NCBI GenBank assembly: GCA_014075215.1
Contig: CP046177.1
Location: 183,291-247,290 of the forward strand
Source: Flavobacteriaceae bacterium
Lineage (GTDB): Bacteria > Bacteroidota > Bacteroidia > Flavobacteriales > Flavobacteriaceae
DNA length: 64,000 bases
Direction: 5' to 3'
The translations under genes were made by a program, and so were the position numbers. Under the pieces are notes generated by a model, which was not told the origin of the DNA, searched no databases, and saw only the letters and a list, made by a program, of their open reading frames with translations. Below, piece after piece: positions 42,180 through 61,674 of this stretch; the stretch's first letter is position 1, and each line of letters starts with the position of its first letter.

Positions 42180-42189
42180 AAATGAAATC

Positions 42190-44223: not shown

Positions 44224-44247
44224 GGATAAGAATTTTAAAATACAATT

Positions 44248-45192: not shown

Positions 45193-45244
45193 TGAAATCT
45201 CTTAAATACTATACTTATAGAAAATCACATTTTAAGTCGAGACC

Positions 45245-47530
45245 ATGAAAAAAAGTAATTTACTACCCCTAACTTTCCTTATATTACTATTTGTAGTTTC
45301 ATGCGCTACGAAGATAGACCCGGAAACATACAAAAACCCAAACGCTCCTGTTGAAGATCGGGTAAATTCACTCCTGTCTGTAATGACATTAGAAGAAAAA
45401 GTGGGGCAAATGAACCAATACAATGGTTTTTGGGATTTAACAGGCCCGGCTCCCGGTAGTGGTGATGCAGCTAAAAAATATGAGCACCTGAAAAAAGGCC
45501 GGGTAGGATCAATGCTAAATGTAAGAGGGGTTCAAAATGTAAGAAAAGTACAAAAGATCGCGGTCGAAGAATCCGGGTTAGGCATTCCTTTGATCATAGG
45601 CTTTGATGTAATTCACGGGTATAAAACACAATCACCCATACCCTTGGCAGAATCTGCCAGTTGGGATTTGGAAGCTATTAAGAGATCTGCCAGGATGGCT
45701 GCTGTGGAGGCCTCTGCAGCAGGAATTAACTGGACATTTGCACCTATGATCGATATTTCCAGAGATGCCCGATGGGGGAGAGTCATGGAAGGAGCAGGGG
45801 AAGACACCTATTTGGGAAGTAAAATAGCTGCGGCCAGAGTACGAGGATTTCAGGGCAGTGACCTGAGTCGGCATAATACTATTGCAGCTTGTGCAAAACA
45901 TTTTGCAGCATACGGCTTTGCAGCATCAGGAAAAGATTATAATACTGCAGATATAGGAACTTCCACGCTGTACAACACTGTTTTCCCTCCGTTTCAGGCG
46001 GCTGTAAAGGCAGACGTAAAAACAGTTATGAACTCTTTTAATGAGATAAATGGAATTCCGGCTACCGGTGATTCGTTCCTGCAAAGAGATATTCTGAAAG
46101 GCAAATGGGGATTTGAAGGATTTGTTATTTCAGACTGGGGATCCTTGGCGGAAATGATAGCACATGGATATGCGGAAGACAAAGAACACGCTGCGGAACT
46201 GGCTGCTAAAGCAGGATCTGATATGGATATGGAATCTTATGCTTATGTAAATCATTTGGCAGGCCTTGTAAAAGAAGGAAAAGTAAAAGAACCTCTAATA
46301 GATGATGCAGTAAAAAGGATTTTGAAGGTTAAATTTGAATTAGGGCTTTTTGAAGACCCTTATAAGTACTGTGATGAAGCCAGGGAAAAGGAAGTTATCG
46401 GTAGTAAGCAAATACATGATGCTGCTTTGGATATGGCAAAAAAATCGATTGTTTTGCTTAAAAATGAAGGAAATATATTACCACTTAAAAAGAACGGACA
46501 GAAAATTGCACTTATAGGTGCGCTAGCTTCAGATAAGAACAGCCCTTTAGGAAATTGGCGATTGGCTGCAAAAGATGATTCTGCCGTTTCTGTCTTGGAA
46601 GGAATGCAATCCTATAAAGGAAATACTTTACTATATGCAGAAGGCGCTAAAGTATCTGTCGGTACTACCAATTTTTTTACTGAAGTAACCATTAATACTA
46701 CAGATACATCCGGATTTAAAAAGGCTATTTCTGTCGCTAAAAAAGCGGACGTAGTAGTGATGGTTTTAGGAGAAGTAGGTTTCCAGAGCGGAGAAGGAAG
46801 AAGCAGAGCCAATTTAGGATTACCAGGTGTTCAGCAAAAATTATTGGAAGTGGTTTATAAGGCAAATAAAAACATCGTGTTAGTATTAAATAACGGAAGA
46901 CCTTTGGCAATTAATTGGGCAGATGAAAATATTCCTGCTATTCTGGAAGCCTGGCAATTAGGTTCGCAAAGCGGTAATGCTATAGCTCAGGTACTATATG
47001 GCGACTATAACCCCAGTGGTAAATTGCCCATGAGTTTTCCAAGAGATGTAGGCCAGATGCCTCTTTATTATAATTATAAAAATACCGGAAGACCGGGACC
47101 TAAAAAAGAAGTTTTCTGGACACATTATCAAGATATGGAGAACACTCCTCTGTATCCTTTTGGATATGGCTTGAGTTATACTTCTTTTGAATATTCGAAT
47201 ATCAGTGTACAAAATAATTACACCTCTGATAAGACTGTTAAAATAACAGTTGATATAAAAAATACCGGTAAAACGGATGGTAAAGAGGTAGCTCAATTAT
47301 ATATTCGGGATCTTTTTGCAAGTGTTACAAGGCCGGTAAGAGAATTAAAAGGATTTGAGTTAATCCCTTTAAAAACAGGTGAAACAAAAAAAATCTCTTT
47401 TACCTTAACAGATGAAGAGCTTGGTTTTTATGATAATGAAGGTGTGTTTTTAGTAGAACCGGGAACATTTAAAGTATTTGTCGGAGGCAGCTCCTATGCA
47501 AGTTTAACATCTGAATTTGAATTAGAATGA
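45245..47530 (+). CDS. bglX: GH3 beta-glucosidase
   Basis: 761-aa ORF with a lipoprotein signal. Motifs are GQMNQ, GFDVIHG, SRDARWGR and GFVISDWG (nucleophile Asp), followed by a C-terminal Fn3-like domain. Confidence 0.85.
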   Translation: MKKSNLLPLTFLILLFVVSCATKIDPETYKNPNAPVEDRVNSLLSVMTLEEKVGQMNQYNGFWDLTGPAPGSGDAAKKYEHLKKGRVGSMLNVRGVQNVRKVQKIAVEESGLGIPLIIGFDVIHGYKTQSPIPLAESASWDLEAIKRSARMAAVEASAAGINWTFAPMIDISRDARWGRVMEGAGEDTYLGSKIAAARVRGFQGSDLSRHNTIAACAKHFAAYGFAASGKDYNTADIGTSTLYNTVFPPFQAAVKADVKTVMNSFNEINGIPATGDSFLQRDILKGKWGFEGFVISDWGSLAEMIAHGYAEDKEHAAELAAKAGSDMDMESYAYVNHLAGLVKEGKVKEPLIDDAVKRILKVKFELGLFEDPYKYCDEAREKEVIGSKQIHDAALDMAKKSIVLLKNEGNILPLKKNGQKIALIGALASDKNSPLGNWRLAAKDDSAVSVLEGMQSYKGNTLLYAEGAKVSVGTTNFFTEVTINTTDTSGFKKAISVAKKADVVVMVLGEVGFQSGEGRSRANLGLPGVQQKLLEVVYKANKNIVLVLNNGRPLAINWADENIPAILEAWQLGSQSGNAIAQVLYGDYNPSGKLPMSFPRDVGQMPLYYNYKNTGRPGPKKEVFWTHYQDMENTPLYPFGYGLSYTSFEYSNISVQNNYTSDKTVKITVDIKNTGKTDGKEVAQLYIRDLFASVTRPVRELKGFELIPLKTGETKKISFTLTDEELGFYDNEGVFLVEPGTFKVFVGGSSYASLTSEFELE

Positions 47531-48288
47531 AAAAATTAACTTCATTTATTACTATACTATTACCTTTCATTATTTCATGTAGTGAAAAAGAAGTAATTTT
47601 TGAAGATCATTTTTCTTCTCAAACTTTAGATGAATCTTCTTGGAACTACGATATAGGAGACGGCTGTCCAAATCTTTGTGGTTGGGGAAACAACGAACGT
47701 CAGTTATATACCAAAGAGAATGTATCAGTAAAAAATGGAAATTTGGTGATTACTGCAACTAAAAAAGATACAGCGTATTATTCAGGAAAGATTCACACAA
47801 AACAAAAAGTAGCATTTCAATATGGTATCGTAGAAGTAAGAGCAAAACTTCCCTTGGGAAGCGGTTTATGGCCGGCAATTTGGATGCTTGGAAACGATAT
47901 TGATGAGAACGGGTGGCCAAATTGCGGAGAAATTGATATTATGGAATACGTAGGTAAAGAGCCACATACCTTATATACTTCCTTACATACTCCGGATAGC
48001 TTTGGAAATACGATTAACTCCAAAAAGACAATAAAAGAAAATTTAGAAGAAGGATTTCACATATATAAAACAAATTGGACAAAAGATGAAATCTCATTTT
48101 ACTTGGATGACGAGCTAGTATATACCTTTTCTCCTGAAATAAAGAATATCAAAAATTGGCCTTTTAACAAACCTTTCTATATAGTTCTTAATTTAGCTGT
48201 TGGAGGGAATTTTGGAGGCCCGGAGGTAGATGATTCTATTTTTCCTCAAAAATTTATAATTGATTATGTAAAAGTGTATAAAAATTAA
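47527..48288 (+). CDS. GH16 endo-1,3-beta-glucanase (laminarinase-type)
   Basis: 253-aa ORF with a lipobox (LLPFIISC). It has the catalytic ExDxxE motif in GEIDIMEY and WPAIWMLG. Confidence 0.85.
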   Translation: MKKLTSFITILLPFIISCSEKEVIFEDHFSSQTLDESSWNYDIGDGCPNLCGWGNNERQLYTKENVSVKNGNLVITATKKDTAYYSGKIHTKQKVAFQYGIVEVRAKLPLGSGLWPAIWMLGNDIDENGWPNCGEIDIMEYVGKEPHTLYTSLHTPDSFGNTINSKKTIKENLEEGFHIYKTNWTKDEISFYLDDELVYTFSPEIKNIKNWPFNKPFYIVLNLAVGGNFGGPEVDDSIFPQKFIIDYVKVYKN

Positions 48289-48313
48289 TTCTAAAAACCA
48301 TTAAATTTAAATT

Positions 48314-49126
48314 ATGAAGAAAATTACTTATTTATTAATGTTATTAACGGTTGTAGGTTACGCACAGACAACACTTATTGATTTTGAGACAGCGACTACG
48401 TGGACCGATTTCGACGGAGGCGTTATGACAACCGAGACAAATCCTTACAATAATTCGGACAATAATTCGGCGAATGTGGGGAAGATGGTAAAAAATGCCG
48501 GTCAACCATGGGGAGGAAGTTGGACAGATTTAGGTTCACCTATAGATTTTTCAAGTAATAATGCAGTATCCGTAAAGGTGTATTCACCAAGAGTAGGAGC
48601 TAAATTATTATTTAAAGTAGAGAATGAAACAGACGGAGGAGTATTTTTCCAGCAAGAAGCTACTACTACTATGGCAAATGCCTGGGAAACATTGACATAT
48701 GATTTTTCGTCAGTTAATACTGCCAATAGCTATCAGAAAGTAGTGCTTATTTTTGATAATGGAACTGTCGGAGATGGAAGTGCCAATTTTACATTCTATG
48801 TTGATGATATTACCCTATACCTAGATAGTAGTGCACTTAGTCAGATAGATTTGCCAGTAAATTTTGAAGGAAGCACTACAAATTATACGGTAACTGATTT
48901 TGGAGGTAATGCATCTATGTTAGTAACGGATCCGGCTAATAGTTCAAATAATGTGATACAATCTGTTAAAACAACCGGAGCTGAGATTTGGGCAGGTACC
49001 ACAATAGGTACGCCTTCAGGTTTTGCTACGGCAATTCCTTTTACAGCTACAAGTACTAAAATGTCCGTAAAAGTGCGATCACCGTTAGCCTTTAGATTAG
49101 CAAATAGAAATAATTACTTAAAATAA
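48314..49126 (+). pseudogene. Secreted CBM-like two-domain protein, C-terminally truncated
   Basis: The domains are related to those of 42190..44223 (VSVKVYSPRVGAKLLFKVEN). The second domain breaks after MSVKVRSP at about 49084 and runs into unrelated sequence (LAFRLANRNNYLK*). Confidence 0.6.
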
Positions 49127-49211
49127 AAACATAATAGTTATGATGAAATTTCTTTTTTTGCTTCTTTTTTTCTTTGTTAATAACTCTTATTTTGTTGATA
49201 ACCAAAAACAC

Positions 49212-49283
49212 AAAAGAACGGAGTGAACTTTAGCGGCCAGCTAGCTTTTTAGAGCCATCCCCCGTATTAGTCTCCGTTCTTTT
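49212..49283 (+). ncRNA. Candidate IS110 5' non-coding (bridge-RNA-like) stem-loop
   Basis: A perfect 12-bp stem, AAAAGAACGGAG (49212-49223) with CTCCGTTCTTTT (49272-49283), encloses 48 nt. It lies about 95 nt upstream of the recombinase ATG. Confidence 0.4.
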
Positions 49284-49376
49284 TAAAAGTTACTTAGAAC
49301 CATATAGAATTTCAGTTTCTGCCCTTATTAAAGGTCTTAGTTTAAGTAACTATTATTAATATCTAATTACAAAATT

Positions 49377-50372
49377 ATGAAAACAAATGAAATTATCGGA
49401 ATCGATGTCAGTAAATTATTAATTGATGTTTGTATCTATTCTAAACAAATTGTTCAACAGTTTGAGAACAGTAAATCTGGATTTAAATTAATGCTAAAGT
49501 GGAGTTTTAAAAATTCGTCTTTCTCTAAAGAAGAAACCATGTTTGTATTTGAACATACAGGAATGTACTCTCATTTATTATCTGTGTCTTTAACTGAACA
49601 AAAATTATCTTTTTTCATAGCTTCTGGTTTAGAAATTAAAAGATCTATTGGTATTGCTCGTGGAAAGGATGACCAAATTGATGCCAAACGCATTGCTCTA
49701 TATGGGTATCGATTAAAAGAAGAACTTAAACCCAGTAAGCTACCTAAAAGAAGTATATTACAACTAAAAAGTCTCTTATCTTTAAGGACAAAACTTAACA
49801 AACAAAGAGCTGGTTTTAAAGTTACTTTGAAAGAACAAAAAAGAATTTATAAAGCAAAAGAGTATAAAATAATCTTTGACGTTCAACAAAAAATGATTGC
49901 AGAACTAACCAAACAAATACACAAGATTAATACTCAAATGCAAGCTATTATTGACCAAAATATAATGTTAAAAGAAACCTATAAACTTGTTACTAGTGTT
50001 AAAGGTATAGGAATGCAAACTGCTATAATGATGATTGTGTTTACTGACAATTTTTCAAAATTTGAAAACTGGAGAAAGTTTGCCTCTTATTGTGGTGTTG
50101 CTCCTTTTCCTTACCAATCTGGAACTAGTATTAAAGGACGTACAAAAGTCTCTCATTTGGCTAATAAAAAATTGAAAGCAATTATTAATATGTGCGCTAT
50201 TTCTGCTATACAACATAACCCAGAAATGAAATTATACTATCATAAAAGAATAAAACAAGGCAAAAGTAAAATGAGTACCGTTAACATTATTAGAAACAAA
50301 TTAATAGCAAGAGTGTTTGCCGTTGTCAAACGACAAACACCCTATGTAGATACTTTTAAATTTGCTGCATAA
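49377..50372 (+). CDS. IS110-family transposase (DEDD recombinase)
   Basis: 331-aa ORF with the N-terminal IGIDVSK motif. The C-terminal VKGIGMQTAIMMIVFT...FASYCGVAPFPYQSGTSIKGRTKVSHLANKKLK is the IS116/IS110/IS902 domain. Confidence 0.85.
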   Translation: MKTNEIIGIDVSKLLIDVCIYSKQIVQQFENSKSGFKLMLKWSFKNSSFSKEETMFVFEHTGMYSHLLSVSLTEQKLSFFIASGLEIKRSIGIARGKDDQIDAKRIALYGYRLKEELKPSKLPKRSILQLKSLLSLRTKLNKQRAGFKVTLKEQKRIYKAKEYKIIFDVQQKMIAELTKQIHKINTQMQAIIDQNIMLKETYKLVTSVKGIGMQTAIMMIVFTDNFSKFENWRKFASYCGVAPFPYQSGTSIKGRTKVSHLANKKLKAIINMCAISAIQHNPEMKLYYHKRIKQGKSKMSTVNIIRNKLIARVFAVVKRQTPYVDTFKFAA

Positions 50373-50493
50373 ATTAGTAAAAATAATATCTCAACTTTTA
50401 CTTGTTTTTATCATAGAATACCTTTAAGATCTCCGTATTGTACTGTTGTATGTTTTTCTAAATATTTCATACTACAAAAGTAAGTTTATTCTT

Positions 50494-51108
50494 TTAGTCT
50501 ACAAATTTCTGTTTTACTACTTCAAAATTCCACTTATTAAAACCTTGATAATATGCCTCAACCCAAAAGTAAGTAGGATTATTATAATCCTGTTGACAAT
50601 CAAACTCGCAATAGGTTTTTACCAAGAACCCAAAATTGCCTAAATACCGAAGTAAATATGGCTGATAGTTACCCTGACGAGTTACTTTACAATTTGGCTT
50701 TTGGTTAATCTCGTATTGAATAAATTTTTTAGTAGCCCTATATGCTGTTTGTCTCCAATAATTTGAGTATTCAAATTCTTCTAATGTAGGTTCTTTGTGC
50801 TTCTTATTATATGCCTTTGGGTCTTTCCATAATTCCAGTAAATCTAATTGAGGTTCTGTATTATTTTGAAAAGCTGAATTATCTGTAACATCTAATTCTT
50901 CACCTTCTTTCATTTGCTGTAATTGTTTAATTTTTTTTATCCAATCTTCATTGCTTTGATTTTGTGTTTTAGGTGTTTCAGTTATTGTGTTTTGTTCCTT
51001 TTCTAGTATTTGGTTGTGTTGTTGTTTAGGTTTATCATTACAACTTATAAGAAGTAATACTAGAGTAGTTGCTATTGATGTTATTTTAAGTGTTTTCACT
51101 AAGTACAT
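50494..51108 (-). CDS. Lipoprotein whose start region was rebuilt by an IS4 insertion
   Basis: 204-aa ORF: MYLV|KTLKITSIATTLVLLLISC. The first codons come from the IS4 terminal repeat. The original start is reconstructible as MKTLKIT.... Confidence 0.6.
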   Translation of the reverse strand: MYLVKTLKITSIATTLVLLLISCNDKPKQQHNQILEKEQNTITETPKTQNQSNEDWIKKIKQLQQMKEGEELDVTDNSAFQNNTEPQLDLLELWKDPKAYNKKHKEPTLEEFEYSNYWRQTAYRATKKFIQYEINQKPNCKVTRQGNYQPYLLRYLGNFGFLVKTYCEFDCQQDYNNPTYFWVEAYYQGFNKWNFEVVKQKFVD

Positions 51109-52193
51109 GACAAAAATTTAGTCAAGTTCATATTGTTTTGATTTACAGGGTTTAATAGCACAGAAGCGATATAATCTAATCCATATTTGAATATGCTTTT
51201 AGCCATTCTTCCATGCTTTTTTATTTTGATAGGCTTAATCTGATGTAAATATATACCAACTTTGTAACACCATACGAAAGCCATCATTACAAACAGTACT
51301 AATTTTTCAATACGCTTAATATCTTGCAGGTGTGTGTTTTCAATATCAAAGCCACTGGCTTTCATTGCTTTAAAACACATCTCTATCTGCCATCGTTCTT
51401 TGTATTGTTCAAAGGCCTTATCAGGAGCGTTGAACGATACAATGATTAAGAAATCAGGCTTTCCATTTTTTGGGTACAACTTGCATCCGGAAAGGAAACA
51501 AAGCTGACCATTAACACGTACAATTTTAGGATAATACACAAACTCATTGATCTTATGTGGATTAAACAAGTGAAATACTTTGATGGTTTTGTTCTTATCA
51601 GGAAGCTCTACCTTAAAGTTGTTTCGAATGCGGATATAATATTTGATTCCATTTGTATTCAAGAAATCCAACCAATGATTACCTACAAACTCTCTATCGG
51701 CTACAATGGATTTAATAACATCTTTGCCAAAAAGTCTTATGAAACGATTCACAAGATCAATACGCTCCTGACTGTTAGAGTTCCCTGGCTTATCTAACAT
51801 AGTAAATAACAATGGGAAGGCAACACCTTTATAGACAACTCCCAACTTAAAAATGTTGATGTTGGTCTGACCAAACTTCCAATTGGTCCTATCAATACTC
51901 AAGATCAATCCCTCTTGCTTAGGAAGGAGACTAAATATAAGACGAGCGATCAAATCTCCATCCAACGAATAATCAGCAATAAATCTTTGAATACGTCTGA
52001 GTGATGACTTCGAATCTACTGAGGTCTCAAAAGCGTTGGCTACCTTTTCAAAGGTAACTGTCTGTACCTTACAGAGGGCGATAATGAAATGTGATATGAG
52101 TTTGATTCTTGCCAAATTGATCTTACCTTGGAAATGAGAACTTAAAACTGAATTTAATTCACTACTTTTAGTGGAAGCATTGGTTTTTTTCAT
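51099..52193 (-). CDS. IS4-family DDE transposase
   Basis: 364-aa ORF with SIDRTNWKFG, VADREFVG and YKERWQIEMCFKAMK (YREK-type). The stop codon lies in the terminal repeat. Confidence 0.85.
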   Translation of the reverse strand: MKKTNASTKSSELNSVLSSHFQGKINLARIKLISHFIIALCKVQTVTFEKVANAFETSVDSKSSLRRIQRFIADYSLDGDLIARLIFSLLPKQEGLILSIDRTNWKFGQTNINIFKLGVVYKGVAFPLLFTMLDKPGNSNSQERIDLVNRFIRLFGKDVIKSIVADREFVGNHWLDFLNTNGIKYYIRIRNNFKVELPDKNKTIKVFHLFNPHKINEFVYYPKIVRVNGQLCFLSGCKLYPKNGKPDFLIIVSFNAPDKAFEQYKERWQIEMCFKAMKASGFDIENTHLQDIKRIEKLVLFVMMAFVWCYKVGIYLHQIKPIKIKKHGRMAKSIFKYGLDYIASVLLNPVNQNNMNLTKFLSCT

Positions 52194-52306
52194 TAGAAAA
52201 ATGAGTGATGTTATTCTTCTAATATACTGAAAATCAATGCTTTATTTTAATTATTTAACATTTAATTTACTGATAATCAATTAATTATATTTTTTGTCAT
52301 GTACTA
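51099..52306 (-). mobile_element. IS4-family element (about 1208 bp)
   Basis: Inverted ends CTAAGTACATGACAAAAA... and ...TTTTTGTCATGTACTA. The 10-11 bp duplication AAGTGTTTTCA lies at 51088-51098 and 52307-52317. Confidence 0.8.
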
Positions 52307-52317
52307 AAGTGTTTTCA

Positions 52318-52770
52318 TTATTCTAATTCTTGTATTCCGTAAAAAACTAATGTTTGCCCATTTTTAAACTCATAACCAATACTACCAACAGTATCAACCC
52401 ATATCTGAAAACAGATAGAATTATCGATGTCAAATTCCATTCCTTTTAACCCTAATAAACTTTCCGTTATTTTGGACTTCTTTATTTTAAATTCAAAGGT
52501 ATTCCAACTCCTATTTTTAGTTTTGGATTTATAAGAAATCAGGTTTTTGTTGAAGTCGAATGTATGATAACTTACTTCATCATTTGTCTGTAATATATCA
52601 ACCCCTTTTTCGAGGTCATTACTATTACTAACAAATTTAAAAATAGGTTTCTCATTACTTCCCGTCTTGTTTTTTGACGATGAGGTCTTATTGGTTTGAG
52701 TGCATCCAATTAGTGTAGTAAGGATAATAATACCAAAGACTATAATCTTTTTTGTATTAGTGTGGTTCAT
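52318..52770 (-). CDS. Lipoprotein (150 aa), originally stop/start-overlapped (TAATG) with the downstream lipoprotein gene
   Basis: MNHTNTKKIIVFGIIILTTLIGC has a lipobox. I recognise no family. Confidence 0.6.
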   Translation of the reverse strand: MNHTNTKKIIVFGIIILTTLIGCTQTNKTSSSKNKTGSNEKPIFKFVSNSNDLEKGVDILQTNDEVSYHTFDFNKNLISYKSKTKNRSWNTFEFKIKKSKITESLLGLKGMEFDIDNSICFQIWVDTVGSIGYEFKNGQTLVFYGIQELE

Positions 52771-52789
52771 TTGCTTTTCTCATTAATTT

Positions 52790-52990
52790 CAACCCAGTAC
52801 CTAAGTTGAGTGATTAACAAAAAATAAGGCATGGTACTAAAGTCCACTCCTTGGACGAGGTACTGGTATACCTATCAAGTAAAGCGAACTAAGCCCATGC
52901 CCATAAGGAACACGGGCATTAGTTCATCCTTTCTACTTGATTGATTGAAAATTATCAGTTTTCGTCCAAGTTATTAGATGACTAATGCCT
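52790..52990. ncRNA. Candidate structured non-coding element (strand unresolved)
   Basis: There is no ORF here. Several 8-13 bp complementary pairs are present: 52794-52801/52859-52866, 52849-52857/52962-52970, 52874-52881/52934-52941 and 52915-52928/52977-52989. There are also local hairpins at 52842-52856 and 52897-52919, some mutually exclusive with the long-range pairs. Confidence 0.4.
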
Positions 52991-53076
52991 ATCTGCGTAT
53001 TTTATGTAAAGAACGTTTATATCGTTATTCTATATCTTTTGTTTTCTGATTGTATTCCAAATATAATGGATTTCGA

Positions 53077-53622
53077 TTAATCTAAATCTGTATTAAGTAA
53101 TTTTAATAGTTCCTTTTTTTCATCATCAGTAAAATTATTTCTTATGTATGTGCTAAATGAACTTGGAGTTTTTTCAAGTTTTATTCGTTGCCGTTTAAAC
53201 CCTCCTTCAATCATTGCTTTGTACACAGATAATTCTTTAGACATGACTTTTTCAAATAAATCTAATCGATGTTTTTCTAACACTTCTAGACTTCTTTGTT
53301 TATCCGTCTTTCTTACCCTTTTTATGTCTATATCTAATTCTAATTGTACACTTTTTTGTCTTCCAAGTTCTAATTCTACTTCTGTAAACCCTGAACAAAT
53401 TTCTTCTATATCTTTAAAATCCATTTGCAAGCCCCAAGGTCTTACTGTTTCTACAAAGTCAGGAAAATAATTAAACTCTTTAGGTTCTAATTCATTTGGA
53501 GCAGGGTCTCTATTTTTCCAGTCTTCTGATTTAATAATATTTAATATCAATCTTGGTATATGGGTTTCCCTAAATTTGTGTTCCTTTAATTCTTCTTGAA
53601 CTTGTTCTATTAAATTTTCCAT
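53077..53622 (-). CDS. hypothetical protein (181 aa, acidic/helical), coupled to the HNH-helicase gene
   Basis: Its ATG at 53622 lies 1 nt after the helicase TAA (CAA TAA A ATG). The C-terminal half (LEVLEKHRLDLFEKVMSKELSVYKAMIEGGFKRQR) recalls HTH tails of ParB/phage DNA-binding proteins (weak recall). Confidence 0.6.
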   Translation of the reverse strand: MENLIEQVQEELKEHKFRETHIPRLILNIIKSEDWKNRDPAPNELEPKEFNYFPDFVETVRPWGLQMDFKDIEEICSGFTEVELELGRQKSVQLELDIDIKRVRKTDKQRSLEVLEKHRLDLFEKVMSKELSVYKAMIEGGFKRQRIKLEKTPSSFSTYIRNNFTDDEKKELLKLLNTDLD

Positions 53623-53623
53623 T

Positions 53624-55507
53624 TTATTGGCTTTTTAATTTCTCGTATAACTCTTTAGATAGTTCTAATTTTTTCTTGTATTCATCTAAAGTAAAAATAA
53701 GGCTATTTTTTTTACCTACAGATTTATTTAATTTTGAATGTATGTCTCTATACTCTAAACCAAAATCAAAATGAATACGCCCAACCATTTTATGGACTAA
53801 TTTTTTATATCTGTCTTTTTCATCCGTTATTGTTTCTATTTTATGAGGTCGTCTTTCCTCTAATGAAGGTTGCTGACCTGCAATATTTAAAATATCTTTC
53901 CACATGCTTAATACCTTATCTTTTGTAACATCGTATTTAGTAGCTAATATTGTAGCTTCTACATCTTCAGTTTGAGAGAAAAGTGCACCTCCATATACAT
54001 TTCCACTATTTTCACTTGTAGAGCTTAAAACTATATCTTCTATGCTAATTTGAGTTGGCTTTCCACCAATACCCCCTATATGCTCTTCTTCAACGGAATC
54101 TATTTCATATCGAATATGTCTTAATTCTTCTTCAATAAATGTAGCATTGTCAATCAATGGTTTATATTCTGGAATGTACATATAACATACATCTGAATTA
54201 TTTTTAAAATGTACTGGATTTCTAACACCTCGCCCCATAACTTGAACAAACCTAACTCTTGTAGTAACATTTGAAGCATAAACAATAGCCCTTATTCTAG
54301 AAATATCTACTCCCTCAGAAACCATATTAATTGAAATAATCCACGTTTTATAACTTTCTTTAAAACGCTCTATTTTTCTATTGGAATCTTTATCATCACT
54401 TGTAACCAATTCAGCAAAATCAACCCCGTATTTATTATATATTCTCTCGTATAATGCTTTAGCATCTGCTATGGAATTACAAACAATCAAACCTGCATAG
54501 TTTTCATTGCGGTTGGTATTAATCTCATTTAACTGTTGATTAGCCTTTTCAAATGTTTGATATACATAACAATCTCCCTCTGGGCGTACTTTAATTGCAT
54601 TATTATAAATATTTTTTATTTCAGATGCAGGGTCTTCATTTTTTAATCTTTCATAACCATTTACAGTTTCAACTGTTGACGAATTTCGTTGAAATATTAC
54701 AGGACAGCAGACTTTATCTTTAACACTTTCAGCATATCCATAAGAATAATCATATTGTAATTCGTATTTTCTATCGCCAATTTTTTTATATGTAACAAAA
54801 GGTATTTCTGCATTATCATTTCTGTCTGGAGTACCACTCAATAGTAACACAAAACCTGCTTCGTCTCCAATTTCTCTAATTGCATTGCCCCAAGATTTAT
54901 CGTCACCTGCATGATGAACCTCATCAACTATTAGAACAACTCTTTGATTTACATATTTTTTTAGAATTTCTAGGTTTAATGGGTTAAGACTTTGAAAGGT
55001 AATACTAATGCCATTACAATCTCTTGGCCACGCGTACTTAAATTGATAACCATGGTCTACTCTGATGTTAAAAAATTTCTGAAAAGTAACACTCCAATTC
55101 TTTTTAATATTTTCTGTAGGACTAATAACAATTACAGAGTCAAACTCCCCAGATTTTAATAGATAATTAAAAGTATAGCTTGAAAACATAGTCTTTCCCG
55201 AGCCAACTCCAGCAACTGCTAAAAAAGAATTTCCGCCTCCTTTTCGTACCTTAATTAATTTTGCAAAACAATCTTGTTGCCATTTTCTTAATTCAATTTC
55301 TTTTTGATTTCTCATTTTATTTGATTTTAATAAATTACACTTTGGGCATAAGGCTTGTCCATTAGAAATGTGTGTAATACCGTATTTAGAAAATGGAGTA
55401 ATGTGATCAGCATGCCAATTTGTTGGTAAAGAAGTACCACAATTTTGACATAAACCCTCAGAAAGAACAAAGAGAGCTTTTTTTTGCTTTGAATTAAAAT
55501 ATCTCAT
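53624..55507 (-). CDS. HNH endonuclease::SF2 (DEAD/DEAH, ResIII-like) helicase fusion protein
   Basis: 627-aa ORF. The HNH is CQNCG...HADHITPFSKYG...NGQALCPKCNLLKSN. Helicase motifs are I AGVGSGKT, II LIVDEVHH, III LLSGTP, V SINMVSEGVDISRI and VI QVMGRGVR. A C-terminal region of about 170 aa is of unknown function. Confidence 0.8.
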   Translation of the reverse strand: MRYFNSKQKKALFVLSEGLCQNCGTSLPTNWHADHITPFSKYGITHISNGQALCPKCNLLKSNKMRNQKEIELRKWQQDCFAKLIKVRKGGGNSFLAVAGVGSGKTMFSSYTFNYLLKSGEFDSVIVISPTENIKKNWSVTFQKFFNIRVDHGYQFKYAWPRDCNGISITFQSLNPLNLEILKKYVNQRVVLIVDEVHHAGDDKSWGNAIREIGDEAGFVLLLSGTPDRNDNAEIPFVTYKKIGDRKYELQYDYSYGYAESVKDKVCCPVIFQRNSSTVETVNGYERLKNEDPASEIKNIYNNAIKVRPEGDCYVYQTFEKANQQLNEINTNRNENYAGLIVCNSIADAKALYERIYNKYGVDFAELVTSDDKDSNRKIERFKESYKTWIISINMVSEGVDISRIRAIVYASNVTTRVRFVQVMGRGVRNPVHFKNNSDVCYMYIPEYKPLIDNATFIEEELRHIRYEIDSVEEEHIGGIGGKPTQISIEDIVLSSTSENSGNVYGGALFSQTEDVEATILATKYDVTKDKVLSMWKDILNIAGQQPSLEERRPHKIETITDEKDRYKKLVHKMVGRIHFDFGLEYRDIHSKLNKSVGKKNSLIFTLDEYKKKLELSKELYEKLKSQ

Positions 55508-55595
55508 ATTTACTAACCGCCTTTCACTTTTTTAGTGACCATCAGCCTTATGGGCTAAAGATAGTAAAAATTATTGAATATCAGATGATTCGTTT

Positions 55596-55787
55596 TATCG
55601 CATACCAGGGCAGAATCATACTTTGTGATACAAAGTAAGTTTTCCAACAAAATCCGCTAATTTTTGTAAATTTTCAAAAATCTCAAAGATTTTTATTAGT
55701 GAAATAGCATGTTTTAGACATTTAGAAGAGAAAAATTTGTGTATTTGTAGTAAAAATAAAAGTATGATTTTGCCCTGTATCGCATAC
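55596..55787. promoter_or_regulatory. Candidate replication origin / regulatory region
   Basis: A 19-bp inverted repeat (18/19) joins CAGGGCAGAATCATACTTT (55606-55624) and AAAGTATGATTTTGCCCTG (55759-55777). Each arm is abutted by the direct 10-mer TATCGCATAC (55596-55605 and 55778-55787). The repeats enclose about 134 bp of AT-rich DNA and an adjacent hairpin, CTTTGT GAT ACAAAG. Confidence 0.4.
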
Positions 55788-55868
55788 GTAAAAATTATCG
55801 TATTTAAAAAGGCACTTAGTGTATATAGTAAAACACAACTCTCAAAAATTACTGGGGGACAGATAAAT

Positions 55869-56822
55869 CTAAAAAATTAAATCTTTTACAGACCTAATTT
55901 TAATATCTAATTCCCTTACTAGATTCTTTTCTAGTGTATTTTTACTGACTTCTTTTAATAATTCCTTTACGACAGATTTCATTTTACTACGTTTACTTCT
56001 AGGGTTTATAACATCAAAATCTAAATCGGATATAATATTTATTACCTTATCAAATCCCAGTTTATCTATACCATGATATGAAAGGTACTGATACAGTCCA
56101 CTATGTCTATACAATAAATGAACTGGGTCTTTACCTATTGATAATTTATTAACCTTATGATAATCTTTTAACCAAAGTTCCTTCAACTTATTTTGAACAG
56201 TATCGTCAAATAAAGATTTTAAATATACTTGCTCTAAATTAAATCGCTGCTTTAAATTCTTTTTAAGCCTTATTTCGTAGCGTAGAATGTTTTTATTATG
56301 ATATTCGATAGGTATTGAGTAAAACACCTCTTTATTCCCATTTTTTAACTCTTTTATTTTATCATAAAAAATTAATGATTTTGAAGCCCATTTTGTAAAA
56401 AATGTGACAGAATCTTTATAACGATTAGTTTCAAGTCGAGGAAAAGAAATTAAAGAACTAATATATTCATGAACTGAATAATCTACCTCAATATTATATC
56501 CATAATCAACTCTAGTCAATATTGCCTTTTTCATGTTCACATTAATATTGTCTGAAAGCATATTAACAGCTTCTTTAATTGTCTTTCTGTTTAAATGAAG
56601 AAGATTATTACCAAAGTGAAATTTAGACAAAGAACCATTAAAATAAAGTTTATAAGGTTTGTAGTTTTCATTAAGTATAAAAGTAATCTTCATATTTGAA
56701 AGATTTAGTGAAGCTGTATAACCACTATCAGATGTAGATATCTTGGCTTCGCTAATTAACTCCTTAAAATTTGAGTTCTCTTTTGGTTTTATGTCTAAAT
56801 ACCCCTTTATTGTATCAATCAT
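55869..56822 (-). CDS. Putative rolling-circle replication initiator (phage/plasmid gene II/X-like)
   Basis: 317-aa ORF. The N-terminal MIDTIKGYL and the central FYDKIKEL...NILRYEIRLKK pattern match my recall of the Phage_CRI (gene II/X) family. This is not verified by a search. Confidence 0.5.
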   Translation of the reverse strand: MIDTIKGYLDIKPKENSNFKELISEAKISTSDSGYTASLNLSNMKITFILNENYKPYKLYFNGSLSKFHFGNNLLHLNRKTIKEAVNMLSDNINVNMKKAILTRVDYGYNIEVDYSVHEYISSLISFPRLETNRYKDSVTFFTKWASKSLIFYDKIKELKNGNKEVFYSIPIEYHNKNILRYEIRLKKNLKQRFNLEQVYLKSLFDDTVQNKLKELWLKDYHKVNKLSIGKDPVHLLYRHSGLYQYLSYHGIDKLGFDKVINIISDLDFDVINPRSKRSKMKSVVKELLKEVSKNTLEKNLVRELDIKIRSVKDLIF

Positions 56823-56885
56823 AAGTGTTTCCTTTTTATGGAAATTAGTATAGCTTATTATACCGAGTTATATATTCAATAATTT

Positions 56886-57194
56886 TCATAACGATTTGTT
56901 TTTAAGGTTCAACAAATTGTTAGCCACCATTGTTTCAATATCGTCTGTAGATTGAATACGGTTTTTCAAAATGAAATTCTCTAAATCTCTACGCTTAATA
57001 AAAATGAGTTTTCCTGAAGGTTTGGAATAAGGAATTTGATTAGAAGTAATCAATTTTTGCATATAAGAGTAACTTACTCCTATTACAAAAGATGCTTCTT
57101 TAATTGTATAGATGCGTTTACGATAGAGATGACTTTTTTTGATTTCTCTTTTGAGGCTTCTTATCTCACGAACTAGTTGTGCAATTCTTGCCAT
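56886..57194 (-). CDS. Excisionase-type helix-turn-helix DNA-binding protein
   Basis: 102-aa ORF. YTIKEASFVIGVSYSYMQKLITSNQIPYSKPSGKLIFIKRRDLENF is MerR/Xis-like. It lies directly downstream of the integrase gene. Confidence 0.65.
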   Translation of the reverse strand: MARIAQLVREIRSLKREIKKSHLYRKRIYTIKEASFVIGVSYSYMQKLITSNQIPYSKPSGKLIFIKRRDLENFILKNRIQSTDDIETMVANNLLNLKNKSL

Positions 57195-57259
57195 AATGAA
57201 TAATTTAAAAGCTATTATGGCACAAATCTCTTACATAATAGAAGTTTAATTGATAAGTA

Positions 57260-59047
57260 TTAAGGTAGTGGGATAGTAGTACTTATTTCATCTATTATGT
57301 CATTTGTAATGTATTCAAATGCTTTGTGCTTATCTTCACTTAAAGCTTTACTCAGTTGGTTATTTTTAAATGGTTCTCCATTTTTATTGATAAAATGATG
57401 AATTACTAATTGATGTCTAAATCGTTTAGTTTCATTATTTAGATAGTTGTTTTCAATCAATAAATCGATTAAATTCGTTATCTGAAACTCAGTTCCGAGC
57501 CATTGAATTTTTTTATCCCATTGGTTCTCAAAATGAAATTTAAAATCATCATTTTTTTCATCAATTAGTTTGTTTTTAATTAACACTTTGTATAGGAAAT
57601 TGATAAATTCTTTTTTGTTTAAATCAGGGTTAAGTAAAAAGGATTTTTTTCTATTTATTCTTAATGGATTAGTGGTATCATTATTATTTTCAATTTTTGA
57701 AAGTTTTGTATCAATAATTCTTTTCAACTTAATTAACCTCAACTGAAAATCATAATACTTTTCATCTTTATGTTCGATTTTAAGCAGGAGTTCAATTATA
57801 TCATTTTCATATTGTTCGAAATACTCATCATAAAACCATTCACCAGAAATTCTATCTCTATGACCACCACCATAGAAATCATCTAACACCAAATAACTAA
57901 AATGAGTTTCAAAATTGTGTAGTATTCTATCCTCAAAATATTCAACCTTTTTCTTTACTTCTTGTAGTTCTATAATATAAAATTCTAAATTTACCATACT
58001 ATTAACGGCTTTTTGTTTTTCCTCGTCAATAACTTTTGCATACACTAAAGTACTTTTTATATCTTTATGCCCCATAAGTTTTGAGATAGTAAAAATATTA
58101 ACTCCAGCAGTAACTAGTAATGTTGCAAAAGTGTGCCTTGCACAATGAAAATGTACTTTTTTATCAATCCCAGTCAGTTTAATAAGTTTCTTAACTGTCC
58201 TATTCATTGAACTAATATGGTCTGAAAGATTGAATACAAATTCTTCATTGTGAGTTTGTTTGTTTAAAATATTCCGAGCGTTATTATTTAAAGGTATATA
58301 AACCGTATTCTTAGTTTTATTTTGTATTAATTGTATTCTGTTATCCTTAATGTTAGACCATTTCAAATTTTTAATATCCGATGCCCTAAGCCCACTATAA
58401 CAACTAAATAAAAAAGCATTCTTTGAATCGTTGTCCCAAAAATCGGTAGAAATTATTTTTTGTATTTCATCCTTTGTTAAAAATACAATTTCGGTTTCTT
58501 TCTTTTTAGGTCTTTCAATAAATCTAATAGGATTTTCAACAATGATTTTTTCTTTAATAGCTTGATTAAGTGTTGCATTGATTTTATTGGTATAAGTAAC
58601 AATAGAGTTATTTGCCAACTCTTTACTTTTAAGGTATTCAATGAAATTTTCAATCCAACTAACCGAAATGTTTTCAAAAGTCAATTTTTTGCCTTGAAAT
58701 TTAATAAGGTGTTTTAAGGTGTTATCCCAAGCTGTTTTTGTCTTTTCACTTTTCTTGTTTCCTAACTTTTCAAAATAGAGTATGAAATTTGCCTTTTGTA
58801 ATTGCCTTGATACTAAACCATTTTTTGCATTACCCAATTCAATTTCCAATTTTGCTCTTATATTTTCAACTAACCGTTCTTTTTGTTTTCTAACCTCTTT
58901 GGTGTCGGTTGTATTAAAGGTTACTTCTTTTATGGTTTCCCTTACTCGTTTTCCGTTTAAGGTATAATCTAATTGTTTTCTATAAGGTCTATTCTTACGA
59001 GAGTTATTTTTATTCCCAATATACTTTGTTCTTAAATTTACTGACAT
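57260..59047 (-). CDS. Tyrosine site-specific integrase with a 243-aa C-terminal extension
   Basis: 595-aa ORF. The catalytic set is readable: R221 (GLRASD), H301-x-x-R304 (HCARH), H327 (MGHKD) and Y336 (LVYAKV). The core ends at about residue 352. Residues 353-595 (57260..57991) form an additional domain of unknown family. Confidence 0.8.
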   Translation of the reverse strand: MSVNLRTKYIGNKNNSRKNRPYRKQLDYTLNGKRVRETIKEVTFNTTDTKEVRKQKERLVENIRAKLEIELGNAKNGLVSRQLQKANFILYFEKLGNKKSEKTKTAWDNTLKHLIKFQGKKLTFENISVSWIENFIEYLKSKELANNSIVTYTNKINATLNQAIKEKIIVENPIRFIERPKKKETEIVFLTKDEIQKIISTDFWDNDSKNAFLFSCYSGLRASDIKNLKWSNIKDNRIQLIQNKTKNTVYIPLNNNARNILNKQTHNEEFVFNLSDHISSMNRTVKKLIKLTGIDKKVHFHCARHTFATLLVTAGVNIFTISKLMGHKDIKSTLVYAKVIDEEKQKAVNSMVNLEFYIIELQEVKKKVEYFEDRILHNFETHFSYLVLDDFYGGGHRDRISGEWFYDEYFEQYENDIIELLLKIEHKDEKYYDFQLRLIKLKRIIDTKLSKIENNNDTTNPLRINRKKSFLLNPDLNKKEFINFLYKVLIKNKLIDEKNDDFKFHFENQWDKKIQWLGTEFQITNLIDLLIENNYLNNETKRFRHQLVIHHFINKNGEPFKNNQLSKALSEDKHKAFEYITNDIIDEISTTIPLP

Positions 59048-59230: not shown

Positions 59231-60919
59231 CTAAATAACCTCTACAATTAAGCCATTTTCTGTTTTGGAAACTTTAGCTAAGTTATTTTTAGTCAGTTCT
59301 TTAATTGCTTTATCCCATTTCTTATTAGATAATTCAGCTTTAACTTTAATGTCACTTAAAGCACTGCCAGAATGTTCTTTTAAAATGCCTAATATCACTT
59401 TTGCTTCATCACTAATTGCCACTTGTTTTTTCTCTGGTCTCATTTGCGGAAAAAAAAGCACTTCCTGAATAGACTGATTATTCGTTAAAAACATCACCAA
59501 CCGATCCATACCAATTCCCATTCCGGAAGTTGGCGGCATTCCATATTCCAAAGCCCGTAGAAAATCATCGTCAATAAATTTGGTAGCCTCATTATCGCCT
59601 TTAGCAGCCAGTTGCAGTTGAGCTTCAAAACGTTCTCTCTGATCTATAGGATCATTTAACTCGGAATAAGCATTGGCAATTTCTTTTCCGCATACCATCA
59701 GCTCAAAACGCTCTGTTAACTCGGGATGATCTCTATGCTCTTTACATAAAGGGCTCATTTCTTTTGGGTAATCTATAATAAAAGTGGGTTGGATATAATT
59801 TTTTTCACATTTTTCACCAAAAATCTCATCAATTAATTTCCCTTTGCCCATCGTATCATCTACCTCGATGTTCATAGATTTTGTAGCTTCGCGGATTTCA
59901 TCTTCCGTTTTTCCGTTAATATCAAAACCGGTGAAATCCTTAATGGCATCTGCCATCGTAACCCTAGCGTAAGGCGCTTTAAAATCTATTTCATGTGCTC
60001 CATAAGTAGCTTTTGAAGTTCCATTTACTGCAATTGCACAATGCTCTAATAATTGCTCGGCAAAATTCATCATCCAGTTATAATCCTTATACGCCACGTA
60101 AATTTCCATTGCCGTAAACTCAGGATTATGTGTCTTATCCATTCCTTCATTTCTAAAGTTTTTAGAAAATTCATACACGCCATCAAATCCACCGACAATT
60201 AACCTTTTCAAATAGAGCTCATTGGCAATTCTCATATACAGCGGGATTCCTAAAGCGTTGTGATGTGTTACAAAAGGTTTTGCTGCTGCACCACCTGCAA
60301 TAGGTTGTAAAACAGGAGTTTCTACCTCAAAATAACCGGCATTATTGAAAAAAGTACGCATTGCATTAAACAGCTTGGTTCTTTTAATAAAAACCTCTTT
60401 TACATGTGGGTTCACTACCAAATCCGCATACCGTTGCCTGTAACGAAGTTCGGTATCTGTAAAAGCATCAAATACAACACCGTCTTTTTCTTTTGGAAAA
60501 GGCAATGGTTTTAATGCTTTACTTAATAAGGTAAAATTTTTAACCAGTACTGTTTTCTCTCCGACTTTAGTGGTAAACAATTCTCCTTCAATACCCACAA
60601 AATCCCCTAGGTCTAATAGTTTTTTAAAAACTTCATTGTATTTGGATTTATCTTCCCCCGGACAAATTTCATCACGATTAAAATAAACCTGAATCCTGCC
60701 TTTACTGTCCTGCAACTGTGCAAAAGAAGCTTTTCCCTGAATATTAATAGCCATTAACCTTCCTGCAATTACAACGGAGTTTCCTTCTTTAAAAGTTGTT
60801 TTTATGGCTTCGGAATTTGTAGTTACCGGGTAAATGCCTGCCGGATACGGATTAATTCCTAAAGCTCTAAGCCTGGAAAGTTTTTTTCTTCTGACAATTT
60901 CTTGCTCCGATAACTGCAT
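59231..60919 (-). CDS. lysS: lysine--tRNA ligase (class II)
   Basis: 562-aa ORF with an OB anticodon-binding domain. It has class II motifs (FRNEGMDKTHNPEFTAME, GIGMDRLVMFLT) and a C-terminal extension of about 60 aa. Confidence 0.95.
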   Translation of the reverse strand: MQLSEQEIVRRKKLSRLRALGINPYPAGIYPVTTNSEAIKTTFKEGNSVVIAGRLMAINIQGKASFAQLQDSKGRIQVYFNRDEICPGEDKSKYNEVFKKLLDLGDFVGIEGELFTTKVGEKTVLVKNFTLLSKALKPLPFPKEKDGVVFDAFTDTELRYRQRYADLVVNPHVKEVFIKRTKLFNAMRTFFNNAGYFEVETPVLQPIAGGAAAKPFVTHHNALGIPLYMRIANELYLKRLIVGGFDGVYEFSKNFRNEGMDKTHNPEFTAMEIYVAYKDYNWMMNFAEQLLEHCAIAVNGTSKATYGAHEIDFKAPYARVTMADAIKDFTGFDINGKTEDEIREATKSMNIEVDDTMGKGKLIDEIFGEKCEKNYIQPTFIIDYPKEMSPLCKEHRDHPELTERFELMVCGKEIANAYSELNDPIDQRERFEAQLQLAAKGDNEATKFIDDDFLRALEYGMPPTSGMGIGMDRLVMFLTNNQSIQEVLFFPQMRPEKKQVAISDEAKVILGILKEHSGSALSDIKVKAELSNKKWDKAIKELTKNNLAKVSKTENGLIVEVI

Positions 60920-61173: not shown

Positions 61174-61674
61174 TTAAAAGAAAAGTGTTTTGTGGTCCCA
61201 GAATTTTGAGATATACAAGCCGGCAAAAATAAGGCTGACTAAAAATTTTAAGCCTGTAGAAAACAAAAAACCGACAAATGCACCAAAAGCTGCTTTGAAA
61301 GCTCTATTTGAATTAGTACTGTCAAACATCATTTCTCCGACAAAAGCCCCGGCGAAAGGTCCGATTATAATTCCCAAAGGCCCGAAAAAGAGTAATCCTA
61401 TCAGCAAACCTATAGAAGTTCCATAAATTCCATATTTACTTCCGCCAAATTTTTTGGTTCCCAAAGCAGGAATTACATAATCGATAAGCCATATAAAAAT
61501 GGCAATACCCAAGGTAATTCCCAGGAATACCCAGTTCATTTCTATTACAGAAATCATATGAAAAATTAAAAGTCCGAACCAACTTGTAAGCGGCCCCGGG
61601 AGAACAGGTAAAAATGAGCCAATAATTCCTGAAATAATGAGTATAAAGCCTAATAATAGTAGAAAAATATCCAT
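61174..61674 (-). CDS. DUF456-family membrane protein
   Basis: 166-aa ORF with 4 TM helices and Gly-rich segments (GPLGIIIGPFAGAFVGE). Confidence 0.6.
   Translation of the reverse strand: MDIFLLLLGFILIISGIIGSFLPVLPGPLTSWFGLLIFHMISVIEMNWVFLGITLGIAIFIWLIDYVIPALGTKKFGGSKYGIYGTSIGLLIGLLFFGPLGIIIGPFAGAFVGEMMFDSTNSNRAFKAAFGAFVGFLFSTGLKFLVSLIFAGLYISKFWDHKTLFF

Follow-up and report, generated by a model that had tools for sequence, protein, structure and literature searches.

We analyzed a 64,000-nucleotide (nt) stretch of the genome of a Flavobacteriaceae bacterium (contig CP046177.1 of GenBank assembly GCA_014075215.1, positions 183,291 to 247,290), hereafter the window, which contains two adjacent genes on its minus strand that are the subject of this work. 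The first, the helicase gene, is a single open reading frame (ORF) encoding a 627-amino-acid (aa) protein that combines an N-terminal HNH nuclease, a superfamily 2 (SF2) helicase or translocase core of the ResIII type and a C-terminal domain of ~190 aa, and the second, the partner gene, encodes a 181-aa protein of an unnamed family. Exactly 1 nt separates the stop codon of the former from the start codon of the latter (...CAA TAA a ATG G...), as an initial annotation of the locus had stated when it proposed the two genes as a candidate two-gene defense module. Nuclease-helicase fusions are familiar. We show here that the helicase and its partner are a genuine conserved two-gene unit that recurs across phyla, in line with the two-gene part of that proposal, that the partner is linked to the nuclease-bearing form of the helicase, and that the relatives of the pair usually lie in the neighborhood of replication genes.

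Pfam searches with the 627-aa protein recovered ResIII at aa 70-229 (E 7e-19), Helicase_C at aa 325-429 (E 2.5e-8) and DEAD in addition to the HNH domain (Table 1), in agreement with the earlier description of one ORF with a complete HNH motif set and all SF2 motifs. The HNH domain also matched the HNH and endonuclease VII families of PHROG, and the helicase core matched phrog_16, ‘DNA helicase’ (E 1.2e-36). In an alignment of 74 family sequences, C20, C23, D34, H35, C54, C57, N58 and K61 of the HNH domain were invariant, as were G104/K105 (GSGKT), D195/E196/H198/H199 (DEVHH), G225/T226 (SGTP) and Q422/G425/R426/R429 (QxxGRGxR) of the helicase core. Because these residues are invariant in 74 homologs, both sets of motifs are real and under purifying selection rather than chance resemblances. 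The C-terminal domain (aa ~437-627), which the initial annotation had correctly described as belonging to no known family while putting its length at about 170 aa, gave no credible match in Pfam and PDB sequence searches, and is conserved across phyla right to the C-terminus of the protein. An AlphaFold2 model of the helicase (predicted local distance difference test score (pLDDT) 86, predicted template modeling score (pTM) 0.74) was mostly confident over this domain, with pLDDT above 90 for the last 70 residues. Foldseek searches with the model, whose whole-chain results are dominated by the helicase core, returned generic double-stranded DNA (dsDNA) translocases, namely Snf2 remodelers, RadD, LlaBIII, XPB, SauUSI, HsdR and EcoP15I Res; the PDB sequence matches comprised the same set, and BFVD held two full-length homologs, both from uncultured phages and with generic names. 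Conservation extends to the 42-nt leader directly upstream of the helicase start, which recurs in the same position relative to the helicase genes of two related loci, at 90% identity in L177 and 80% in L176 (blastn).

The partner had no match in Pfam, PADLOC, NCBIfam, PHROG or PDB; a PDB profile search gave nothing below E 0.07, and 19 diverse partners scanned against Pfam at a weak threshold pointed to no consistent family. An exhaustive profile search placed 1,781 clusters in the family at E<=1e-3 and 377 at E<=1e-10, and none of the 240 word-indexed homologs has a Pfam domain or a name. The conserved positions include W35, F56 and a (W)GL motif at residue 64, together with a C-terminal motif, RL..(R/K)D.PDL..V..GELS...AM.EAGF, whose suspected likeness to ParB-type DNA-binding helices was supported by no tool and is not claimed here. 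The AlphaFold2 model of the partner (pLDDT 62) falls below 50 in the N-terminal half and is confident, and helical, only over aa ~105-180; compared with PDB by Foldseek, it gave nothing below E 3.8. Elsewhere, a decayed 150-aa remnant of the partner lies alone, with no helicase, in a 564-kb chromosomal contig (L179, 10001-10453), and a 158-aa protein (P0130), which carries a precomputed PF13651 annotation, matches the C-terminal half of the partner only.

More than 2,500 homologs of the helicase were found, and Streptomyces, Micromonospora, Anaerolineaceae and many viral contigs retain the full-length architecture at 30-35% identity. In every relative context that we opened, an ORF of 177-207 aa lies directly downstream of the helicase gene, often overlapping its stop codon, and aligns with the 181-aa partner over the full length; in Flavobacteriia, Actinomycetota, Anaerolineae and many viral contigs, the relatives of the two genes are separated by -49 to +16 nt. 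A hidden Markov model (HMM) built on the partner located it beside the helicase in 66 loci. Where the helicase carries the HNH domain, a partner homolog of 180-230 aa is directly downstream in 60 of 65 loci and absent in 5, whereas among helicases lacking the domain only 4 of 100 loci have one (a weak, 250-aa variant) and 96 have none. These frequencies tie the partner to the nuclease-bearing form of the helicase; the scenario in which the 181-aa ORF is not conserved beside homologous helicases, which the initial annotation had named as evidence against a module, does not hold.

Two sister clades without the HNH domain keep the same C-terminal domain, with a profile match that runs to position ~620. 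One of them (L003-L080) occurs in numerous actinobacterial genomes, next to ordinary metabolic and housekeeping genes and with no partner, and the other (L133-L164) consists of viral contigs in which a conserved gene lies 0-6 nt downstream of the helicase; of three members of this downstream gene that were scanned, one matched Pfam, as Lin1244_N (DnaD-like). The idea that the HNH domain is dispensable even in close homologs, raised by public proteins of 566-574 aa (P0010-P0015), was dropped: in L085, an intact HNH is encoded in frame upstream of the called start (9809-10060), and the public call begins at an internal methionine. The 566-574-aa proteins are gene calls that miss the 5’ HNH, and database architectures therefore under-report the nuclease of this family. 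Full-text literature searches found no description of the helicase-partner cassette. The conservation of the partner and the breadth of its family are new; its function is what we infer below.

To characterize the genomic settings of the pair, we scanned up to three neighbors on each side in 46 non-redundant loci with PHROG and Pfam, pooling the counts of neighbor families over all 46 loci rather than counting per locus. Downstream, the PHROG annotations were dominated by DnaD-like helicase loader (5), primosomal protein (4+2), replication initiation protein (4+3+3+2+2+2), primase/helicase (3), DnaB-like (2+2), polymerase/primase (2) and O-like initiator (2+2); Pfam contributed AAA_25, HTH_36, DnaB_C, DUF1376 and SSB. 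Annotated upstream neighbors were CI/Cro-type (lysogeny) regulators, SSB, RecE-like and Sak4-like proteins, a Cas4-type exonuclease, ERF and YqaJ. The defense-type neighbors listed were one DNA methylase upstream (Pfam) and one methyltransferase PHROG match on each side, with no other family. On the phage contig L099, for example, the genes run in the order SSB, HNH endonuclease, HNH-helicase, partner, replication initiator and then RecT, exonuclease and ThyX, with the start of the replication initiator overlapping the stop of the partner and the large terminase on the other arm. Start/stop overlaps of this kind between the partner and replication initiators occur in several phage lineages, and in L130 the gene after the pair encodes a DnaD-domain protein. 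When neighbors within four genes of the pair were clustered over the 46 loci, no conserved third gene emerged outside three closely related phage contigs; the pair associates with a function, not with a family. Among the neighbors of close relatives, the 341-aa and 506-aa proteins of L176 and the 681-aa protein of L084 had no matches in Pfam or PDB searches.

Several close relatives (60-73% identity) were found in other settings. In L081/L082, thyX and DoxX genes flank the pair and no mobile-element gene occurs within 10 kb, and in L177 a solitary copy adjoins pth on a short contig; another copy adjoins Eco57I, N6_Mtase and MrcB_N (restriction-modification) as well as prophage-like genes, and a further one lies in a region with helix-turn-helix repressors and an S24 peptidase. 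A distant relative (L090, ~35% identity to the best BLAST segment) stands alone among metabolic genes, with no mobile-element genes within 8-10 kb, and in a relative that is 91% identical the downstream flank differs. The solitary intact chromosomal copies suggest a function independent of any resident element. Given these copies, the varied sites, the partner-only remnant and the differing flanks, the observations are compatible with a mobile accessory cassette, a defense system included.

In the window itself, the genes from lysS onward are co-directional, in the order integrase, excisionase, rolling-circle replication initiator (Rep), a 360-nt spacer, helicase and partner, such that the pair is directly downstream of Rep (Table 1). 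This arrangement is another instance of the pair beside a replication initiator. Past the partner, a 150-aa lipoprotein-like ORF is followed by an IS4-type element and an IS110-type transposase. The same block of integrase, excisionase, Rep, helicase, partner and lipoprotein is present in a second assembly (L181, WLWF01006814.1, 6,154 nt), and because the contig ends at the site where the window has the IS4 element, the lipoprotein-like gene may belong to the island. G+C content falls to 26-31% over 50-60 kb of the window. The window yielded no tRNA and no Rfam family, and in a search for attachment (att) sites of the island, direct repeats shared by the integrase-proximal end and 49.1-53.1 kb did not exceed 11 nt.

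Table 1. Features of the helicase-partner locus and the surrounding island (coordinates refer to the window)
Feature	Coordinates	Strand	Basis or remark
HNH nuclease + SF2 (ResIII-type) helicase/translocase + ~190-aa C-terminal domain	53624..55507	minus	627-aa ORF, Pfam
HNH nuclease domain, aa 20-64	55316..55450	minus	PF01844, E 1.7e-9
SF2 helicase core, aa 70-430, motifs GSGKT/DEVHH/SGTP/QxxGRGxR	54218..55300	minus	ResIII, DEAD, Helicase_C
C-terminal domain, aa ~437-627, small beta unit + helical bundle	53627..54199	minus	model; without family assignment
42-nt leader directly 5’ of helicase start	55510..55551	minus	conserved along with the gene (blastn)
181-aa partner protein, unnamed family	53077..53622	minus	homolog directly downstream of most HNH-bearing relatives
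Rolling-circle replication initiator (Rep), Phage_CRI/G2P N-terminal family, 317 aa	55869..56822	minus	PF05144, E 1.5e-13
Excisionase-type HTH_17 protein, 102 aa	56886..57194	minus	PF12728; TIGR01764 excisionase family
Tyrosine integrase, 595 aa, directly downstream of lysS	57260..59047	minus	Phage_integrase + SAM-like domains; phrog_1, E 7e-61
lysS	59231..60919	minus	
IS4-type DDE transposase	51099..52193		perfect 15-nt inverted repeats 51102-51116 and 52291-52305
IS110-family transposase	49377..50372		

Further observations concern the non-coding parts and the flanks of the island. Within the spacer between Rep and the helicase lies an element of 172 bp (55606-55777) whose 19-nt terminal inverted repeats, CAGGGCA(A/G)AATCATACTTT, differ by one mismatch and which has a perfect direct repeat of 10 bp, GTATGCGATA, on either side (55596-55605 and 55778-55787). 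It has the appearance of a miniature transposable element together with its target-site duplication, and not of an origin hairpin, and no second copy was found in the window; the inverted repeat was thus rejected as a replication origin, the direct-repeat flanks being transposon-like and the region not being conserved with the pair. In the spacer that follows the partner (52790-53000, minus strand), an unusually strong RNA fold is predicted (minimum free energy -69.3 kcal/mol, z-score -5.75 against shuffles), for which Rfam gave no match even at E<=1 and which is not conserved next to relatives of the pair; it could be an att region, an RNA of unknown type or a single-strand origin used by the rolling-circle island. 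The recombinase domains of the integrase stop near residue 350 and are followed by a C-terminal extension of ~240 aa without a family match, and the end of the IS4-type element overlaps the start of a 204-aa ORF. Farther away, at 42085-49126 on the plus strand, genes for GH3 and GH16 glycoside hydrolases and a PKD-domain protein form what looks like a beta-glucan (laminarin-type) utilization cluster typical of marine Flavobacteriaceae.

Because the relatives of the pair usually sit among the replication genes of viruses and other mobile elements, a replication helper appears likelier than an anti-virus weapon. The interpretation we favor, at somewhat less than an even chance, is that the cassette is a replication/recombination accessory of mobile elements, that is, of temperate phages, plasmids and integrative elements. 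In the window, as usually in the relatives, the pair lies in a co-directional block with initiator, loader, primase, SSB or recombinase genes, and a replication-helper role fits this family-wide context better than defense does, although the initiators are of many unrelated types. The initial annotation had allowed for a replication helicase serving the neighboring Rep; the general part of that suggestion fares well, and the dedicated pairing does not. Because the Rep family of the window never accompanies the pair elsewhere, there is no specific Rep-helicase partnership: the sole co-occurrence of the two is the same island in the second assembly, and the obligate association with Rep that the initial annotation had set against a defense role is not seen. 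Relatives of this Rep were also sought in plasmid, phage and viral-contig collections, to see what occupies the slot elsewhere, and gave no match.

Several findings weigh against a replication/recombination accessory. By tblastn, the Rep of the window has no homolog in any of 180 helicase-bearing related loci. A rolling-circle Rep already nicks DNA, which leaves the HNH domain without an obvious job in this island. Only a minority of the neighbors in the 46 loci are annotated, and most have no annotation at all. DnaB or AAA_25 helicases are encoded by several of the phage contigs that carry the pair, and the HNH-helicase is therefore an accessory rather than the main replicative helicase. The intact solitary copies (L081/L082, L090, L177) are odd for a pure replication accessory, and among cultured phages only one of 50,697 GenBank phage records, Saccharomonospora phage PIS 136, has a member of the family.

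As a replication/recombination accessory, the pair would act in the window as an accessory part of a small co-directional island made up of integrase, excisionase, rolling-circle Rep, helicase and partner. Coupled translation would supply the helicase and the partner in fixed proportion, and the partner might bind DNA and/or the C-terminal domain of the helicase, directing or licensing the enzyme; a DNA-binding role of the partner is conceivable from its helical C-terminal half, with no support from any tool. The SF2 motor would move along or remodel double-stranded or branched DNA, either close to the origin or at branches, and the HNH domain would nick or cut this DNA. The outcome could be an unwindable primer end from which replication of the element starts or restarts, or branched intermediates of replication/recombination could be processed; we infer the contact between the two proteins, the DNA substrate and the biological outcome. 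Branch processing fits because the HNH domain matches endonuclease VII PHROGs and T4 UvsW is among the weak PDB matches. In T4 UvsW together with endonuclease VII, and in human ZRANB3 (SNF2 + HNH), an SF2 branch-remodeling motor likewise works with an HNH/endonuclease VII-type nuclease; UvsW and ZRANB3 appear as weak PDB matches, and the place of the pair among phage replication/recombination genes is consistent with such a role. The similarity to these proteins is, however, weak and spans shared folds, the nuclease here is an N-terminal fusion, and the partner has no counterpart in them.

A possible but less well-fitting explanation is that the cassette is an anti-phage or anti-plasmid defense module, in which the nuclease-translocase would be the effector and the partner and/or the C-terminal domain would sense foreign or modified DNA. 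It would then act as an ATP-dependent, methyltransferase-free restriction enzyme, akin to SauUSI (Type IV) or the Type ISP enzymes, that phages, plasmids and islands carry as cargo. The order of N-terminal nuclease, SF2 translocase and C-terminal domain is that of both enzyme types, and the best matches of the helicase include 7clg, LlaBIII and LlaGI by sequence and 4xqk, 7clg, HsdR and EcoP15I by structure. Like SauUSI, the helicase is a single polypeptide with no methyltransferase that is predicted from its sequence to unite a nuclease domain with an NTP-dependent SF2 motor, the catalytic residues being invariant, and SauUSI is the top PDB sequence match (7clg, E 1.8e-18), a Foldseek match and a PADLOC match (mREase_IV, E 4.8e-9). 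Unlike SauUSI, it has an HNH rather than a phospholipase-D type nuclease, an obligate small partner and a replication-gene context; for its C-terminal domain, Pfam and PDB sequence searches showed no relation to a modified-base reader, and the match spans the helicase core only. The Type ISP enzymes LlaBIII and LlaGI also have an N-terminal nuclease followed by an SF2 dsDNA translocase, and the HMM match to them extends from the second RecA lobe past motif VI (422-429) as far as profile position ~610, at E 1e-11; in contrast to them, the helicase has no methyltransferase or target-recognition domains, measures 627 rather than ~1,500 aa and carries HNH instead of an Mrr-type nuclease. As the initial annotation had noted, no methyltransferase is adjacent: Pfam found none over 42085-59047 and in the gene at 61835-62794, a scan that did not cover lysS and the ORF at 61174-61674. 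With no methyltransferase domain in the helicase and no cognate methyltransferase gene found, the pair does not qualify as a Type I/III/ISP restriction-modification system.

The combination of helicase and nuclease, often on mobile elements, is also shared with Hachiman HamAB, Hna, Nhi, Hhe and PbeABCD. A PADLOC scan, which the initial annotation had proposed, gave as its best matches PbeA (E 3.8e-20), Type IV restriction enzyme (E 4.8e-9) and several Cas3, all of them partial and confined to the generic helicase core, and returned nothing for the partner. NCBIfam scores were far below the cut-offs, and membership in the named defense families tested was rejected, PADLOC, NCBIfam and Pfam having produced only partial helicase-core matches. 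The match to PbeA is limited to aa 61-231, against a model of 672 positions, and genes for PbeB, PbeC and PbeD are missing, the neighbors being Rep, excisionase, integrase and lipoprotein. At E<=0.1, no Ham model was among the PADLOC matches of the helicase or the partner, and with no Pfam domain in the partner there is no sign of the DUF1837-type HamA nuclease that adjoins HamB in Hachiman; Hna, Nhi and Hhe were absent among the 21 PADLOC families matched, the presence of a model for each in PADLOC-DB 2.0.0 not having been verified. Genomic context speaks on both sides. Consistent with defense are the solitary intact copies at unrelated chromosomal sites in close relatives, the copy beside Eco57I, N6_Mtase and MrcB_N genes, Uma2 nuclease genes near the pair in two loci, the decayed partner-only remnant, the near absence of the family from cultured phages and the fact that, besides integration and replication genes, the pair is the sole content of the island in the window. 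Against it stand the predominantly replication/recombination neighbors of the 46 loci, where a few methyltransferases are the only defense-type matches, the tight overlaps of start and stop codons that join the partner to replication initiators in several phage lineages and the lack of a recognizable modification-reading domain in aa 437-627 or the partner by Pfam and PDB sequence searches. The proposal of defense cargo thus survives as far as a genuine, mobile module is concerned, with solitary copies and one beside restriction-modification genes, and lacks support as regards the defense function itself, no defense model matching beyond the helicase core.

The strict linkage of the partner to HNH-bearing helicases would also be expected if the partner neutralized or gated the nuclease in the manner of colicin immunity proteins, making the cassette a toxin-immunity or addiction-like pair kept on mobile elements as a selfish stabilization or competition module. 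The position of the partner, always immediately downstream and translationally coupled, agrees with this, as do the differing flanks even in the 91%-identical relative and the existence of solitary copies and a remnant. We nonetheless consider it improbable: colicin-type immunity proteins are shorter than the 180-230 aa of the partner, the best-conserved motif of the partner lies in a C-terminal helical segment that we read, with no tool support, as DNA-binding-like, and a 560-aa helicase with a conserved C-terminal domain would be needless for a simple toxin. A cellular DNA-repair or fork-restart factor of the RadD, XPB-Bax1 or ZRANB3 kind, carried by mobile elements to the benefit of the host chromosome, is a similarly poor prospect. 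Both RadD and XPB-Bax1 rank among the top matches by structure and by sequence, the HNH of ZRANB3 is a weak one, and in many actinobacterial chromosomes the clade that lacks HNH but keeps the same C-terminal domain is situated among housekeeping genes; the clade with HNH and partner is, however, patchy, found mostly on viral contigs, plasmids and islands and not syntenic between close relatives, and the matches to repair helicases cover the shared SF2 core only. Archaeal XPB-Bax1 resembles the pair in that an SF2 helicase and a nuclease are encoded by adjacent genes, with XPBII strongly matching the first helicase lobe (E 1.4e-17) and appearing in Foldseek, but in the pair the nuclease is part of the helicase protein itself and the partner has neither nuclease motifs nor similarity to Bax1.

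More broadly, and tentatively, the cassette could be an unrecognized, widespread two-component machine (~1,800 partner clusters) that acts either in methyltransferase-free anti-phage/anti-plasmid restriction with the partner as the sensor or as a ‘nick-and-unwind’ replication starter; in the latter case, phages, plasmids and integrative islands may use it interchangeably with many initiators. The locus illustrates that a nuclease-helicase architecture on an island is insufficient evidence for defense. The obligate, fully unannotated partner family spans several phyla, phage-like contigs and plasmids, and defining its role would give a function to thousands of ‘hypothetical protein’ genes and help to tell whether early-region cassettes of temperate phages are replication tools or weapons, a recurrent ambiguity in the discovery of defense systems.

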